IMG/VR virus record: IMGVR_UViG_3300029391_000001
Location: 19,880-83,879 of that record
Reading direction: 5' to 3' (one strand)
Source: a virus
DNA: 64,000 bases
The stretch's first letter is position 1; every line of letters begins with the position of its first letter. The translations under genes and the position numbers were made by a program. Below are positions 2,700-34,319 of the stretch, in pieces. The notes beneath the pieces are model-generated. The model did not search any database. It was not told the origin of the DNA and worked only from the letters and a program-made list of their open reading frames with translations.

Positions 2700-4871
2700 T
2701 TAATGTATTTGTCTTATTTTGTCATTATATGGATTTCCATCATGAAGCTAAGCCAACTCTATTTCAGTTCTTTTTTCTTCAATATCCATTTGTCTATCTT
2801 TATAAGTAGAATCAGACTGAGCTTTAAGCCAGTTAACTTTATATTCTAACTGCATCTTCTACTATTCTAATCCCAGTCTCTATTCATCTAAGCTTTCAAT
2901 CTTTTGCTGAGCTTTCTATAATTCTTGCTGTAACTACTAAGCCTATTGAGAGGTTTCTTCTAATTTTTCTTGTAGTTGCTGAAGCTGATTATTTTCCTCT
3001 TTGCGAACTTGAACAGCTTTCTTAACCTTATATTTAAGGTCTGTCAGACTCTTAGATGTAAGAGCCTCAAAAATAATATCTGGATCCATCTGTTGATTTT
3101 TTACGAACTCTGGAATGATTGCTTTTATAGTCTATAAATCTTCCATCACTTCTGAACTAGCAGTAATATGAATATCGTAGTCAGTAACAGTAAAATACTC
3201 AGGAAGTGCGGTGAATATCTGTTGATATTTATCCCCAAGTATAATAGTTCCAGTTAATCCTTTCTTATAAGTAACTTTAGCCTAATTAAGACTATCTAGT
3301 AGTATCTCGCAGGTTATTAAATCCATCTGCTAAAAATAGTGCTTAGTTACTATATACGAGTTAGCTACTCCCTACTTAATATTAGTAACTGCATCTCTAG
3401 TTTCTATACCGTTAAGTCGTTCCCTAAATACTCCAGTTATTGATGATGTAGTTTGTTCTACTGATTGAATAGCTAGTTCAATAGCCTATACAGCCTATGC
3501 TTTTAAGGTATCATCAAATCCGTTATATATCTAGTTTGGAGCTTGCTGTCCGTCATTCCTACCTTCTTGGCTTGAGTCTATCCACATGATACCACCTTTT
3601 TTATAAGCTAACCATTTTTGTACTCGTTCTGGCCATTTAACTCCTAAGTTGGTAGGCAACAGAGACATATCCATAATAACTCCAGCAGTACCACTATTAG
3701 CTATTAGATTATCTCTATAATAGTTTAATAAGTCGTATCTATCCTACAGATGTGCACATTTTAATATAAGAGAATAAGGCTACTAAGAGCGATTTAAGAA
3801 ATATACTCCATTTACCGATAAAGAACAGAAGTTGGGATTATCTTTAGACCTCATAACAGTCTTGTCTAATCCTCTAAGAATATATATCTCTTCTCCTATT
3901 CTGATAGTATTGTATCTCTACATCACAAAATCATCATCTGTTTCAATCCATTCAACATCATAGACTGGGATTAACTAGAACCTATGAGCACTATATTCAT
4001 TGTCTGGATAGCCGGGAATGGTTTCATGATTCTAATCTTCATTTACTACTGTACAAGTATCTCCATATACTCTTCTATAAACAGCAGCTGAATCATCAGC
4101 TCGCCATTCATCTTTTAGTCTTCTTAAATCTTCTCTAGATATTTCTTTGCCATATTTAGCTAAAATCTAACTCTTACTCATCCACTTTCTTACTACAACT
4201 CTATATGAGTTCCTTACATATGGAGATTCTGGATTTCTATCAACAAATGTATTAAGTGGGTTTAATACCTCTATTTCAATATTAGTTCCAGAAGCCGATG
4301 ATTTCACTCTAAAGAATGTATAACCAGTAATTAATAAGTCTGTTAGTAACTAACGTAACTTAGTAATTAAATCGGTTTCTCTGGATTGCATAATATAATG
4401 TACTATATTCTAAGCTGCAATTTCATATTGAGAAATAAAGGATTGGTCAATATCCTATATAATTTTATCTAACTAAGTCTTTACAGCTTTATCAGTAATA
4501 TCCTTGCCATCAATAAACTTAAGAATTGAATTACTTAAATGGTCTTTCAAAAACTTTACTATTCCCTTGGTTATTTCTAGCTATTTTTCTCTTGTTATAT
4601 TACTGATAGTATCTGAATCTTTGCAAGAAATTTTCGGAAGTATAGGAGTTCCTAAATATTCTCCAACTAGAGCATCTACGTGTTTCTTTAATAAAGGCGT
4701 AAACTCTACCGAAGTGGGGCTACCTATTCCGAAGTTTTCTTCCAGATAACGGAACTATTCAGGATCTCTTTTACCATTATAATAATTATAAGCTTTCTGT
4801 AACTCATACTTATCATATACAAGTTCCGCAATAGCCTCGTTTGTCTTGTCTATTAATTCCTTCTCTTTCAT
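2700..4871 (-). CDS. portal protein (SPP1 gp6-like); about 30 in-frame TAG codons
   Basis: N-terminus MKEKELIDKTNEAIAELVYDKYELQKAYNYYNGK resembles, from memory, a YY.G motif near the SPP1 gp6-like portal N-terminus; lies just downstream of terminase; 2172 nt in one frame ending TAA 2700-2702; spot-checked mid-gene. Confidence 0.6.
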
Positions 4872-13279: not shown

Positions 13280-13296
13280 AACTATTAATTTTGGCG

Positions 13297-13368
13297 TTGC
13301 CCTACTAGGATTCGAACCCAGACTAAATGATTTAGAGTCATCTGTGCTGACCATTACACCATAGGGCA
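13297..13368 (-). tRNA. suppressor tRNA, anticodon CUA (reads TAG); Gln-type body
   Basis: Full cloverleaf: acceptor tgcccta/tagggca (U1:A72), D-arm gtgt/gcac, anticodon stem gatga/tcatt, loop cuCUAaa, T-arm ctggg-ttcgaat-cctag. Nearly identical in architecture to tRNA-Gln(TTG) at 27771. Confidence 0.8.
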
Positions 13369-15168: not shown

Positions 15169-15615
15169 ATGACACTCGAAGAATTGAAAGACCAGAACGT
15201 AAGCGCAGTAGAAAGAGCTAAGGCAGTAGTATCAGCATTGGGACTGAAAGGTGATGAACGCTCAGTTGTTGTCGGCTTGTCAAAGGGCGATAAGTTTAAG
15301 TTGGTAGCAATGAACAAGGTAGATTTGCCTGCAAATGCCAACCAACCAAACCAAAGCAACTTTACACCAATCACATTTAGCACTGACACAGGTGCAACCA
15401 TTGGTGCAAAACACTTTGCGGGCGTAGAAATCGACGACGATGCTCCGGCAATCGGTTCAACTCCGTTGGAAAATGCCGCTTTCCTTGTTTATTGCATTGA
15501 CCACAATGTAACATTTAAGGTAGACAAAAAGGTAACGGAAGACATTGAAGCTACCACTGACCGCCAAGCCTACAAGAAAAATACTTACAAGCTGGTAGTG
15601 GAAGACTATGATTAA
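15169..15615 (+). CDS. hypothetical protein; first plus-strand gene after a divergent intergenic region
   Basis: ORF track; 256-nt AT-rich gap upstream. Confidence 0.5.
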   Translation: MTLEELKDQNVSAVERAKAVVSALGLKGDERSVVVGLSKGDKFKLVAMNKVDLPANANQPNQSNFTPITFSTDTGATIGAKHFAGVEIDDDAPAIGSTPLENAAFLVYCIDHNVTFKVDKKVTEDIEATTDRQAYKKNTYKLVVEDYD

Positions 15616-16628
15616 AAGATTGGGGAGAAATCCCCTTTCTTTTACATACAAATAATCTTTGTAGAAATGGACATAAGAAAAAAGTTTAAGACTATAAAGT
15701 GTTTGTATAATTGGGGCATAATCTATGACCCAAAGACTAATGAAAAGTTAAATTTCAAATCCAAACGTGTTTATTGCGTAACTTCTTGGGCTTGGATTAT
15801 GACCTATCAAAAGTCAGAAGAAGATATTCCTGAGATAATTAGGATAGTCTTTGTAGATTAACTCTAAGGTACTATGAGTTTTAAATAAAGTGCCCACATG
15901 AACCCCATCATCGGAACGTTGGTTAACGGGGAAAACAACATTACAACAAATCAAATCAAAGTTTTTGTTTAGTTTTAGGATTATATCTGGCAGCTTGGAA
16001 AGACAAGCAAAATCTTTATACCTATCTGCTAATAGGTTTAGTGTTCAACGCGAACATTCGGTAAAAGAAGGAAATTGTACACTCAAAAAGACCCTCAATT
16101 TCCGGACTTTTTCCGATTTTCAAAAAATCCGCCAGAGTAGGAGTTATATAGCTCACACTCTCTATGGACATTATTTAGTATTTAGCCTATAAAAAGGCAA
16201 CAAAAAGCGAGGCTACGCAGAAGAGCCTAACACCAAAAATAACTGCTACAAATTCTATGTGCATATTCGCAAACTTGAGCACTATAGGATTTAGGTTGAG
16301 CTGTAAGGATTGGTCACTTATAGCAATATTATGAGTACTGCTGATATGTCAGTGACCGTACATATCACATATAAAATATGTTATACAATTATGTTAGAAG
16401 TTGCCAGGTCTAAGAAGCCTGATTAAAATCTCTAGATAGTAAGAGAGAACCTCATAAGGGTTCATTTTCCATCTCGAACCTATTCGCAAGTTTATAGACT
16501 AGCTATCTATAAATTTAGTGATGGAATACCAACGAAGTTGGTGTTCCCGCTTTGCGAACGTTGATAACGTCCTCAGCATGGAAAACTGAGAAATAATCTC
16601 CTATCTTATTCTAGATATAGATAGGATT

Positions 16629-16685
16629 TCCCTACTGGTGCGTCTCCCGCTGGAGAAGATTCTGGTTCAAGTCCAGAGTAGGGAA
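16629..16685 (+). ncRNA. tRNA-like minihelix (acceptor stem, tetraloop hairpin, T-arm; no D or anticodon arm)
   Basis: tccctac/gtaggga 7-bp acceptor; T-arm tctgg-ttcaagt-ccaga; internal hairpin tctcc-cgct-ggaga. Confidence 0.4.
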
Positions 16686-16827
16686 CTACTAAGTTGCAAT
16701 ATTCATATTATTGTCGGACCATAATGGGTATGCCCTGAGACTATGCAGTTGTTGTGAAATAACTCAAAGTATTGTGGCACAGGAAGGTCTAGTCGTCACT
16801 TTGCTCATTTTATTAATTTTCATTTTG

Positions 16828-16852
16828 ACTAAAAGGCACAGCGGTGCCTTTA
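16828..16852. terminator. hairpin aaaggcac-agcg-gtgccttt, possible bidirectional terminator
   Basis: Perfect 8-bp stem with a T/A run. Confidence 0.35.
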
Positions 16853-17271
16853 CTCTCAAGATAAGAACAACCTTTACGTGGTTTGAGAGATAAGTAAGCT
16901 ACTTCAGCTGAAACTAATAGTTCTAGTAACAATTAAAAATATTTACCATGAAAGAGAAAATGAAACGTATTGAGGAGTACACTAAAGCAATGAGAGAGCT
17001 ACTAGATAAACTCTTGGAGCAAAACCCAGATCTATGATGAAATATGGGGAGCTTATGTTGCAGGCATGAAGGTGTTCTTATAACTCCTATTCTAGCTGAG
17101 AATTAAAACTAGCTGGCTTTTATTACTCTTTGTAAAAGCTCAAAAATTAAAAAGAGAAATCTAGAACGGTAAGCCCGGTTCTCTTCATCCTTTAACTGAT
17201 TTAGAAGTAAAACAGAAATTAGTTGGCAGCCTGGAATAGACAGGCATTTTTAACTAAAAATTATAGAAAAA

Positions 17272-17736
17272 ATGAACACAGTAGAAATTAACAGCTTAAA
17301 GAAGTATTCAGAGTTTACAACAACATTTCGTATTCCATTCAAAAAGGCAAATGATGTAGAAGCTAAATGCTATACGCCTATGGATGTAATTGACGCTTGG
17401 AAAGAAGTATGCATACAGGCGTTAGAAATGAGAATGGAGGCGTGTCTGTTAATGTTGCTCAAGAACAGAGATCGAGTGATAGAATCTGACGAAGAATGTG
17501 TTGTTTTCAGAAAACCCAACGGACATCTTCATTTCTTCAACCACTCCAGCTTTCAGGCTATGGAAGCTCTAGTAGTAGCTCTTGTAGTAGAGGGTCCTAT
17601 AGTACTCGACTCCCTCCTAGTAGACCTATTATTGAAGGCTTTGTACTGGATTCCAGAAAAGTTGAAAAAAGATCATCAAGAATTTGGATTTGGAGAATTA
17701 ATAAGCTGTTTGACCTGCCTAGCCTACAAAGCTTAG
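17272..17736 (+). CDS. hypothetical protein
   Basis: ORF track. Confidence 0.45.
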   Translation: MNTVEINSLKKYSEFTTTFRIPFKKANDVEAKCYTPMDVIDAWKEVCIQALEMRMEACLLMLLKNRDRVIESDEECVVFRKPNGHLHFFNHSSFQAMEALVVALVVEGPIVLDSLLVDLLLKALYWIPEKLKKDHQEFGFGELISCLTCLAYKA

Positions 17737-19353: not shown

Positions 19354-20313
19354 ATGAAAACAGTATTAACCCATACAGGAAAAATCTATGTTGATACAGA
19401 ACATAGACTAGAGTTCTTAACTGTAGGAGACTATGGTAAGGAGAACAACATCAAGGCTGATTTCTTAGGTCTAACTAAGGAAATCAATGGAGTAGAGAAT
19501 ACAGCAGTAGACCTAAGCAAGAAATGGGTAGCAACTATTTCAACTCAGAAAGGCTGTCCTATGCATTGTAAATTCTGTGATGTTCCCAAGTTTGGATTCT
19601 ATGGAAATGCTTCTATAGAAGATATGGATAGACAAATCCGAACTATTATAGAAGGCGAAAGTGTCAGAGAAACAGACAGGTTTAATGTACACTTTGCTAG
19701 AATGGGAGAACCAACATGGAATGATAATGTATTAGCATTTGGACTTGCTCTCAGAGGTATGGTTAAGTCTGCAGGGTTAATAGCTAAAACTGTTCATCCA
19801 GTAGTTTCCACGATGCTTCCGAAAGCAAATAATAAGCTTGGAAACTTCTTACAGGTTTGGTGTAGCATAAAAAATGAGTTCTACAATGGAGAAGCAGGCT
19901 TGCAGTTTTCAATCAATTCTACAGACGATGAACAGAGAAATGAGCTGTTTGACTCTAAGAGTTTGTCACTAGCACAAATTTCTCGGTTGGCTGACGAGTT
20001 ACCAATGCCGGTAGGCAGAAAGTATACTCTAAACTTTCCAGTAACCTCACAAACTATTCTCGATGCGAAGGAATTGTCAAAGCTATTTGATAGGGAGAAA
20101 TTTATTGTTAAAATCACTCCTATACATGAAACAGCTTCTGCTATAGAGAATGGTTTCCAGGTAACTGGATACTCTGATTATGACGTTTATCGTCGCTTTG
20201 AACAACCTTTATTGAAAGAAGGTTGGGATGTTATAGTGTTTGTTCCATCTAAGGAGGAAGATTCTGACCGAATTACTTGTGGGAACGCACTAATCTCTGA
20301 AGAGAAGATTTAA
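19354..20313 (+). CDS. radical SAM domain protein
   Basis: CPMHCKFC = CxxxCxxC cluster. Confidence 0.55.
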   Translation: MKTVLTHTGKIYVDTEHRLEFLTVGDYGKENNIKADFLGLTKEINGVENTAVDLSKKWVATISTQKGCPMHCKFCDVPKFGFYGNASIEDMDRQIRTIIEGESVRETDRFNVHFARMGEPTWNDNVLAFGLALRGMVKSAGLIAKTVHPVVSTMLPKANNKLGNFLQVWCSIKNEFYNGEAGLQFSINSTDDEQRNELFDSKSLSLAQISRLADELPMPVGRKYTLNFPVTSQTILDAKELSKLFDREKFIVKITPIHETASAIENGFQVTGYSDYDVYRRFEQPLLKEGWDVIVFVPSKEEDSDRITCGNALISEEKI

Positions 20314-27770: not shown

Positions 27771-27842
27771 TGGGCTATGGTGTAATGGTAGTCACATCAG
27801 ATTTTGGTTCTGAGAGTCCAGGTTCGAGTCCTGGTAGCCCAA
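27771..27842 (+). tRNA. tRNA-Gln(TTG)
   Basis: U1:A72; loop uuUUGgu. Confidence 0.7.
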
Positions 27843-28003
27843 CTAAATACAGCTTCGCTAGGGAGACCTAGCCTTGCATACCAAGAGGCGGTAAAGTCAG
27901 CTGAATAAATCCGTTGCGGTATTACCTAGTAATAATCTAAAGCTAGCTAAAGAATAACTAGGAACATAAGGGTAGTAAGGCTGTATTTCTAAATTATATA
28001 ATT

Positions 28004-28742: not shown

Positions 28743-28819
28743 AGGGACGTATCCCCTCAAGCTTATACCTTGTAGAAAGGGTAGTTGGTCGCACGTGGGT
28801 TCAAACCCCACCGTCCCTA
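28743..28819 (+). tRNA. non-canonical 77-nt tRNA-like gene (perfect acceptor and T-arm; anticodon hairpin with 8-10-nt loop uuGUAGaaag)
   Basis: agggacg/cgtccct acceptor, gtggg-ttcaaac-cccac T-arm; no standard D-arm or 7-nt anticodon loop; a tRNA 5'-half-like fragment (ggaccta ta gctcagccaggtcagagc) lies just upstream at 28699-28742. Confidence 0.35.
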
Positions 28820-33978: not shown

Positions 33979-34051
33979 GGGCCGTTAGCTCAAATGGCTA
34001 GAGTGCTGGTTTTGCACACCGGAAGATAGGGTTCGAGTCCCTGCGTGTCCA
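33979..34051 (+). tRNA. tRNA-Ala(TGC), G3.U70 present; acceptor base imperfect
   Basis: Loop uuUGCac; T-arm taggg-ttcgagt-ccctg. Confidence 0.55.
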
Positions 34052-34255: not shown

Positions 34256-34319
34256 GCGGGATGATAGCAGAGGTAGCTAGTCAGGCTCATAACCTGAAGG
34301 TCGTCGGTTCGAATCCCGT
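34256..34319 (+). tRNA. truncated or aberrant tRNA-Met(CAT)-like element
   Basis: Good acceptor gcgggat/atcccgt, D-arm, anticodon tcagg-cuCAUaa-cctga, but only 15 nt where variable loop plus T-arm should be. Confidence 0.3.

Follow-up and report, generated by a model that had tools for sequence, protein, structure and literature searches.

A conserved RNA island in a crAss-like phage genome, with a decayed suppressor tRNA behind a RAGATH-14 RNA

We analyzed a 64,000-nucleotide (nt) stretch of viral DNA (the window; positions 19,880 to 83,879 of IMG/VR record IMGVR_UViG_3300029391_000001) and concentrated on a 1.4-kilobase (kb) island at window positions 15862 to 17271, in which a RAGATH-14 RNA is followed by what remains of a suppressor transfer RNA (tRNA). 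A preliminary description of this DNA, made from the letters alone, had found no credible open reading frame (ORF) in the island and had proposed a cluster of structured RNAs that includes a tRNA-like minihelix, possibly a processing signal or a tRNA mimic. The phage that carries the island is a large crAss-like phage of the human gut. In the window, the replication genes and one flotillin-like ORF have crAss-like phages as their top matches, and close relatives of the island are found on contigs from the human gut that measure about 100-280 kb, with several at 182-192 kb. Loci of relatives are referred to below by L numbers. The central features of the island are as follows.

Positions 16040-16395, plus strand: structured 5' domain of the RAGATH-14-containing RNA, conserved, with compensatory pairs and no Rfam family.
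Positions 16396-16602, plus strand: RAGATH-14 RNA (Rfam RF03145), full-length covariance-model match.
Positions 16522-16557, plus strand: insertion of 36 nt inside RAGATH-14, made up of an 11-base-pair (bp) hairpin (GGAATACCAAC-GAA-GTTGGTGTTCC) and a duplicate TTGCGA strand.
Positions 16598-16626, plus strand: terminal hairpin of the RAGATH-14 RNA, stem TCCTATCT/AGATAGGA, loop TATTCTAGATAT.
Positions 16629-16685, plus strand: tRNA remnant (the minihelix), a Gln-derived suppressor tRNA with its D arm deleted.
Positions 16832-16851, plus strand: hairpin before element Y (core 16835-16848, GGCAC-AGCG-GTGCC), which would form the 3' end of a further module, X.
Positions 16853-16924, plus strand: element Y, a candidate self-cleaving ribozyme similar to that of hepatitis delta virus (HDV), with covariation and two subtypes.

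Searching Rfam, as the preliminary description had suggested, identified a full-length RAGATH-14 RNA (156.6 bits, E = 8.5e-29; the gathering score is 149.1, and the match covers all 190 model positions), and the region folds better than its shuffled versions (z = -4.1, none of 200 shuffles as good). Copies in relatives score 153-206 bits; the window copy is barely above threshold because of a 36-nt insertion and a short last stem. The insertion, visible relative to the Rfam model, is clade-specific, missing from L011, L016, L002, L007, L012, L018, L014 and L022, and folds as a hairpin on its own. Its duplicate strand creates an alternative TTCGCAA/TTGCGAA closing helix, which had earlier been taken to enclose a set of nested stems. 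The hairpins of that set (16494-16512 and 16526-16548) do exist and lie inside RAGATH-14. The long-range closing helix could form on paper, but the predicted fold keeps the family pairing instead.

The conserved RNA outreaches the Rfam model by about 355 nt on the 5' side and by one hairpin on the 3' side. In the 5' domain, 14 of the 60 consensus-fold pairs show compensatory changes, and the whole domain is kept in L024 and L008 despite unrelated upstream flanks. Rfam returned no match on it at E<=10, and coding is excluded for this domain because relatives carry non-triplet indels. From two IMG/VR pattern scans, one metagenome scan and one genome scan we collected 37 distinct 3' contexts of RAGATH-14; the terminal hairpin (8-9 bp) is present in every one of them, with stems that covary (e.g., CTCCACCT/AGGTGGAG, CTCTATCT/AGATAGAG and TCCTCTTCT/AGAAGAGGG). 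As judged from this conservation and pairing, RAGATH-14 is the 3' domain of a structured RNA of about 590 nt (16040-16625). Compensatory base changes across relatives occur in four parts besides RAGATH-14, namely the 5' domain, the terminal hairpin, the hairpin before Y and Y itself, in good agreement with the cluster of structured RNAs originally proposed.

We find it hardly credible that the island is instead a protein gene that was overlooked or is recoded, or that it acts at the DNA level, for instance as a replication origin. Stop-free stretches reach 96 codons in the standard code (15902-16189) and up to 220 codons if TAA and TAG are both read as sense, and an ochre suppressor is encoded in relatives. 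These stretches are nevertheless interrupted by 1-, 2- and 4-nt indels between close relatives, and coding under TAG/TAA read-through was rejected because such indels shift the frame. Conservation follows base pairing and not codons, a curated RNA family matches over its full length, and L024 and L008 retain the RNA module alone. The absence of a credible ORF noted earlier is thereby upheld, with the caveat of a 29-codon small-ORF remnant at 16948-17037.

The minihelix is present at 16629-16685 and folds as the preliminary description had drawn it; the other hairpins described there, including the stem at 16828-16852, are likewise in place. In its minimum-free-energy fold (-21.4 kcal/mol, z = -2.15, 6 of 200 shuffles equally good), an acceptor stem of 7-8 bp encloses a 5-bp stem that is closed by a CGCT tetraloop, followed by a T arm. 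The acceptor strands lie at 16629-35 and 16678-84, and the anticodon stem (16643-47/16652-56) encloses the tetraloop and is followed by a variable region, an intact T arm at 16661-77 (TCTGG-TTCAAGT-CCAGA) and A16685 as discriminator. Neither ARAGORN nor the Rfam tRNA model (RF00005, E<=10, 2-kb search) calls this element a tRNA; 10 nt of the D arm are gone and the 4-nt CGCT replaces a 7-nt anticodon loop. It does share the 7-bp acceptor stem and the canonical T arm with tRNAs, and its ancestor was a genuine tRNA. By its sequence, the minihelix is tRNA-derived yet not a tRNA, and it cannot decode.

This descent can be followed in the relatives. At the homologous position, 1-5 nt past the terminal hairpin, 24 distinct relatives carry a full tRNA of 70-74 nt that scores 44-57 bits on the Rfam tRNA model, and the minihelix aligns with it base for base save for the D arm and the anticodon loop. 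The cloverleaf alignment is 96.5% paired and includes 5 pairs with double changes. According to ARAGORN, the anticodons of the homologous tRNAs are CTG/TTG (Gln), CTA (amber) and TTA (ochre). The tRNAs of L037 (CTG) and of L035 and L018 (CTA) are near-identical and differ by one anticodon base; therefore the suppressors derive from tRNA-Gln. Intact Gln and suppressor homologues, together with an intermediate allele, mark the minihelix as a decayed true tRNA gene and not as the tRNA mimic that had been considered. A newly functional mimic, acting as a CCA-tagged decoy, as a primer or as a counter to tRNA-targeting host defences, would profit from the intact acceptor stem, T arm and discriminator A and from the fact that tRNA-like elements lacking an anticodon loop seem to have arisen twice behind RAGATH-14 (see below). 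It is nonetheless very unlikely, since nothing specific speaks in its favour, an element without an anticodon loop cannot decoy anticodon nucleases, and this rare allele has an origin that homology fully explains. We also rejected a transfer-messenger RNA (tmRNA)-like domain and a phage attachment site as identities of the minihelix, because neither acceptor half is missing and the element as such has a full tRNA as its homologue.

The alleles at this position form a series that runs from an intact TTA tRNA (e.g., L004) through a version with a 6-nt loop (L006, L023 and L076) and one with the CGCT tetraloop and an intact D arm (L060 and L077, the latter about 98% identical to the window) to the combination of CGCT tetraloop and 10-nt D-arm deletion, seen in the window only, and finally to complete absence of the tRNA in L012. 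In the lineage of the window, the 7-nt anticodon loop of an ochre suppressor would thus first have been exchanged for the CGCT tetraloop, and subsequent loss of 10 nt of the D arm would have left a coaxial acceptor/T-arm minihelix. The TTA tRNA is intact in L003, L004, L008-L011, L016, L020, L024, L025, L056, L059, L063, L064 and L066, and the TTA allele has been independently inactivated at least twice. Many relatives with a TTA tRNA additionally carry an amber suppressor (CTA) on the other strand, 2-3 kb away. The window itself has other tRNAs, of a different lineage, for Gln (27771-27843) and for amber suppression (13296-13368, minus strand, ARAGORN), and the remnant copy is therefore redundant.

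Searches for the exact truncated allele found none in IMG/VR or in any of the fetched loci, and the CGCT-loop allele, absent from IMG/VR, was found only in two metagenome loci that had been fetched for another reason. Loss of the D arm could accordingly be an assembly or sequencing artefact of one genome, with the L077 type as the real allele. The 10-nt deletion and a 14-nt deletion further downstream are the only large differences between the window and L077 across 2.5 kb, and no other contig has either of them. Against this, both deletions are clean and lie in non-repetitive sequence, the remaining helix folds well, similar indels are common among independent assemblies of the island, and the key lesion, the CGCT tetraloop, is present in three assemblies. 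We therefore consider an artefact improbable.

Downstream of the remnant, the stem at 16828-16852 had been read as terminator-like. The hairpin before Y is indeed stable (-11.2 kcal/mol for GGCAC-AGCG-GTGCC, z = -3.8, none of 200 shuffles as good) and has compensatory variants in relatives (CCCAC/GTGGG and GAGAC/GTCTC), but 16835-16848 is followed by TTTACTCTC and no T-run, and a terminator scan does not list it. Instead, it directly precedes element Y. In GenBank phages, blastn with the island gave Y as its sole match (70 nt, in two pig crAss-like phages), and when the 64-kb window was searched with a covariance model of Y, no further copy turned up. The proposed Y fold has helices P1 (16853-59/16883-89), P3 (16870-72/16880-82), P4 (16897-99/16907-09) and a P2 pseudoknot (16864-68/16920-24), with UUUACGU as loop L3 and a J4/2 junction, CUAA, that contains the candidate catalytic residue C16914. 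Its cut is predicted between 16852 and 16853, 4 nt past the 16835-16848 hairpin.

We collected 22 distinct Y homologues in all. In 11 distinct homologues, the 18 pairs of the nested double pseudoknot in HDV order are paired in 99% of cells compared with 24-47% for slid partners, and five pairs show double changes (three in P1, two in P2). The covariance model also revealed a second subtype in phages of a hammerhead-carrying group of relatives, in which the sequences of P1, P2, P3 and P4 are all different with pairing kept and P2 occurs in three forms. L3 (UUYACGU) and J4/2 (C-U-A-A) are conserved across both subtypes, the J4/2 cytosine lying within an invariant C-Y-A-A, 0-2 nt ahead of the 3' strand of P2. 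Representative positions are 16853-16924 in the window, 5024-5115 in L045 and 8307-8406 in L022. A stable hairpin precedes Y in every case with a spacing of 2-4 nt, and the AAGC block of Y always lies 42-58 nt ahead of the ATG of a small ORF; in L018, L037 and L046 a hammerhead replaces Y.

Some properties speak against assigning Y to the HDV-like ribozymes. Scores of 19.1, 19.6 and 15.9 bits on the Rfam HDV-F-prausnitzii model are well under its gathering score of 44, the usual G1.U at the base of P1 is replaced by C1-G in the window subtype (subtype 2 has a G.U there, in L022, L028, L042 and L045), and only one plausible P1.1 pair, a single U-A, can be drawn. Taken together, Y is a strong candidate for a hitherto unannotated HDV-like ribozyme, as predicted from its pairing. 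A cut 4 nt after the hairpin would set module X free, and the mRNA of the small ORF would then start with Y. One metagenome contig, L067 (OCQL01013747.1), begins with an Illumina adapter joined to the middle of Y, an assembly artefact in the public record.

The position directly behind the terminal hairpin of RAGATH-14 is occupied by different elements in different phages. Among the 37 distinct contexts, a tRNA is found 1-5 nt past the hairpin in 24, a type-III hammerhead ribozyme in nine and Y in one, so that 34 contexts have an element of a kind that is cut at its 5' side, drawn from three unrelated kinds of device. The window remnant has a 2-nt spacer to the hairpin and thus the same layout as the 24 tRNA-carrying relatives. 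In the nine hammerhead contexts the predicted cleavage point lies 5 nt past the hairpin (the hammerhead of L041 scores 42.2 bits in Rfam, E = 9e-7), and in L012 Y begins 4 nt past it. L080 carries, directly behind RAGATH-14, a second and sequence-divergent cloverleaf in which an AGAU tetraloop takes the place of an anticodon loop and the acceptor pairs are retained via compensatory changes; a search of IMG/VR for further elements of this type found none. Elements that resemble a tRNA but have no anticodon loop arose twice behind RAGATH-14.

RNase P (ribonuclease P) cuts at the 5' edge of tRNAs. Type-III hammerheads cleave themselves beside their 5' strand, and the cleavage site of HDV-like ribozymes lies at their first nucleotide. 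Each of the three elements, cut at its own 5' edge, would free a RAGATH-14 RNA that ends in a hairpin, and a hairpin-protected 3' end would be their shared role, with the tRNA version additionally supplying a tRNA. Because tRNA, hammerhead and Y share the same place behind the terminal hairpin, the arrangement suggests that the site matures the 3' end of the RAGATH-14 RNA. An acceptor/T-arm minihelix is a minimal substrate for bacterial RNase P and for tRNA 3'-end enzymes; McClain, Guerrier-Takada and Altman are said to have found in 1987 that such a helix suffices for the bacterial enzyme. RNase P could thus cut at the remnant, which would still mark where the RAGATH-14 RNA is to be separated from the module that follows. 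Of the two roles first suggested for the minihelix, that of a processing signal is consequently the plausible one, with cleavage predicted from position and structure.

Whether the window minihelix retains this role is about evenly balanced, and several observations argue against it. The D-arm deletion is unique to the window and could reflect recent neutral decay as well as an assembly error. L014 has no recognisable element at the site; the sequence behind its RAGATH-14 is unannotated and, judged by eye, could stem from a tRNA that has decayed badly and lost its acceptor pairing. In L028 the hammerhead core is mutated (CCGATGAG), and from these two loci it follows that cleavage at the site is not indispensable. 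Part of the adjacency of tRNAs could come from how common tRNA genes generally are in these phages. The window is from a tRNA-rich phage, with 21 tRNAs by ARAGORN. Finally, that three partial lesions all spare the acceptor/T minihelix is expected by chance in about 18% of cases and therefore provides no statistical evidence for selection on the minihelix.

Most of these points would suit a functionless pseudogene, in which a redundant ochre suppressor is decaying and structure is left only because the lesions are recent. The decay series from 6-nt loop to tetraloop, to tetraloop with D-arm loss and to complete deletion in L012 has the expected form, the last partial step is confined to the window, and L028 and L014 get by with a mutated or unrecognisable element. 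The neighbouring small ORF of the window has also been hit by the 14-nt frameshifting deletion, and deletions in modules X and Y are frequent among other assemblies (L075, L058, L056 and L011/L063), including a Y without P4. What speaks against a pseudogene is the presence of a 5'-cut element after the terminal hairpin in 34 of 37 contexts by three unrelated devices, the divergent cloverleaf in the same place in L080, whose acceptor pairs are compensated, and the sparing of acceptor and T arms by all three partial lesions. We give this explanation only slightly less than an even chance. Small deletions are the main mode of evolution of the island in general, and several assemblies contain damaged processing modules.

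The reading that we put forward tentatively, and that is rather less than evenly likely to hold in full, is that tRNAs, cloverleaves or minihelices without an anticodon loop, type-III hammerheads and the HDV-like Y would be interchangeable 3'-end-maturation modules of a crAss-like-phage RNA of about 0.6 kb. The same site would be where amber and ochre suppressors arise and die, and the window minihelix would be a tRNA cut down to an RNase P handle and kept for processing.

The remaining features of the island are the following.

Positions 15987-16008, plus strand: hairpin motif, copy 1, CTGGCAG-GCTTG-GAAAGA-CAAGC (-7.1 kcal/mol, z = -2.1).
Positions 16716-16790, plus strand: module X, a conserved RNA closed by the helix GGACC/GGTCT, with hairpin insertions of variable length.
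Positions 16948-17037, plus strand: small ORF, truncated to 29 codons here and 49-50 amino acids (aa) long in relatives.
Positions 17223-17245, plus strand: hairpin motif, copy 2, TTGGCAG-GCCTG-GAATAGA-CAGGC (z = -2.4).

Module X has the core ATAATGGGTAYGCCCWGAGAC ... CAAAGTATTGTG ... GCACAGGAAGG, into which 20-90 nt are inserted in relatives, at the same two points each time. Its inner hairpin shows one compensatory pair between the window and L018 (by eye), and Rfam at E<=10 gave nothing beyond noise. An HDV-like fold was considered for module X and rejected, as the P1-like helix only closes a multi-branch structure. The small ORF (MKEKMKRIEEYTKAMRELL...IWGAYVAGMKVFL in relatives, with two conserved allelic forms) is frameshifted in the window by the 14-nt deletion, which lies after 17029 as compared with L077. 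By eye, the transcript of the small ORF has an apparent intrinsic terminator at 17094-17120, where CTTTTATT comes after CTAGCT...AGCTGG; ncr982 of Rfam matches weakly over this site, and a simple scan misses it, probably because the loop measures 13 nt.

The hairpin motif has just two copies in the 64-kb window and 29 distinct instances in relatives. It follows the pattern yTG(G/A)C(A/T/G), a 5-bp variable stem, the loop G(G/A)AA(T)AGA and the complementary stem; at least nine different covarying stems were seen, with loop and 5' flank conserved. Copy 1 lies about 30 nt ahead of the conserved 5' domain, and copy 2 lies 26 nt ahead of the ATG at 17272, is followed by ATTTTT and scores as terminator-like in the scan. 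In relatives, too, the motif is located about 30 nt before the 5' domain of the RAGATH-14 RNA, 25-45 nt before ATGs or 3-4 nt before Y, and L001 has four copies within 3860-4235. It could be a phage-specific (hairpin) promoter or a 3'-end/terminator hairpin; we know of no early promoters for crAss-like phages.

Genes downstream of the island are on the plus strand, as are two ORFs that precede it (15169-15615 and 15667-15861), and features on the opposite strand upstream include an endonuclease-like ORF and the second suppressor tRNA. Pfam and PHROG searches with the ORFs flanking the island gave no match. Further downstream, at 20376-41697, lies a plus-strand array of at least 20 tRNAs with ORFs in between, and Rfam adds three weak tRNA matches to the ARAGORN set (28743-28819, 33979-34051 and 34264-34319).

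In relatives, RAGATH-14 is found in the neighbourhood of the type-III hammerhead, RAGATH-6, -7, -7-assoc and -9, hatchet and twister-P1, in keeping with the name of the family; the window has only the candidate Y. Relatives of the hammerhead group (L022, L028, L031, L041 and L042) contain arrays of RAGATH-14, -6, -7, -7-assoc and -9 with the hammerhead and multiple hatchet ribozymes, and islands of this type are therefore the natural home of RAGATH RNAs. A 27-aa hydrophobic ORF comes after the hammerhead in this group, L022 has a permuted tmRNA as well, and L068 shows a near-threshold match to twister-P1. Among 185,579 species genomes, RAGATH-14 occurred on two contigs only, both from metagenome-assembled genomes, and we suspect both to be mis-binned phage contigs. 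In the library that was searched, no paper was found that mentions RAGATH-14, and the top-ranked results of a broad literature search contained no paper tying these RNAs to crAss-like phages.

The identity of the parts, their homology, the covariation and the series of alleles are direct observations. They make it likely that the island is a non-coding RNA operon, in which conserved RNA modules would be separated by RNA-cutting elements. Such an operon would be transcribed as a single precursor, from which cleavage by RNase P at the remnant and self-cleavage of Y would release the modules, the RAGATH-14 RNA among them with whatever function it may have. Its components are of known kinds, namely RAGATH-14, a tRNA-derived processing element and an HDV-like ribozyme; the variant is new.

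RAGATH-14 is in Rfam yet functionally uncharacterised, and this orphan motif now yields testable hypotheses on how the RNA is made, because it appears as the 3' domain of an RNA of about 590 nt, has its home in large gut crAss-like phages and has a 3' end that abuts a cutting element. A single locus displays the life cycle of a phage suppressor tRNA from Gln via amber and ochre to dead, a series that bears on the origin of stop-codon recoding in gut phages. Y represents a candidate self-cleaving ribozyme subfamily missed by current Rfam models. For annotation, kilobase-scale 'gaps' of this type in crAss-like genomes would be RNA operons.

Among known systems, Y is most readily compared with theta ribozymes and with HDV-F-prausnitzii (RF02682). 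It shares with them the nested double pseudoknot, L3 UUYACGU and a CUAA J4/2 similar to that of the F. prausnitzii model and, as in case of theta ribozymes, is found in gut Caudoviricetes that use suppressor tRNAs. Theta ribozymes are, however, characterized by a cut at most 5 nt from a tRNA 3' end and by a minimal form without P4 (PMC10879173), whereas Y starts 167 nt past the tRNA remnant in the window, has P4 present and has C1-G in the window subtype. It also differs from HDV-F-prausnitzii in reaching only 16-20 bits against the gathering score of 44. For 526 theta-ribozyme matches, no tRNA association and a mostly non-coding location were reported (PMC10879173).

The island tRNAs pass through the same anticodon series (CTG/TTG, CTA and TTA) as tRNAs of crAss-like phages described previously, where a point change from TTG(Gln) to TTA(Sup) without reassignment of TAA was found in another crAss group (Yutin et al. 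2021, PMC7886860). In contrast to those, the island tRNA is coupled to RAGATH-14, and its ochre allele was repeatedly inactivated later. The cultured crAss-like phage phi14:2 produces abundant early non-coding RNAs from long intergenic regions (bioRxiv 10.1101/2020.03.07.982082). The island is likewise a long intergenic region of a crAss-like phage, in this case known from sequence alone. Large or stable phage RNAs beside tRNA genes also include GOLLD and ROOL and, in the tRNA cluster of T4, the stable RNAs C and D. The island RNA differs from these in having no sequence or structural match to them, and Rfam reports neither GOLLD nor ROOL in the island.

The closest parallel in organization is eukaryotic. 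In MALAT1-mascRNA and MEN-beta, as Wilusz and colleagues reportedly described in 2008, a long non-coding RNA obtains its 3' end from RNase P, which acts on a tRNA-like structure. Here, too, a long structured non-coding RNA is directly followed by a tRNA or tRNA-like element, non-decoding versions exist (the window, L077 and L080), and a 5' cut would define the 3' end of the RNA. The eukaryotic system differs in being nuclear, whereas the partner in the island is usually a working Gln or suppressor tRNA that can be swapped for ribozymes and at which cleavage is predicted by analogy. If 3'-end modules are truly interchangeable at this site, the island would be a phage counterpart of MALAT1-mascRNA.

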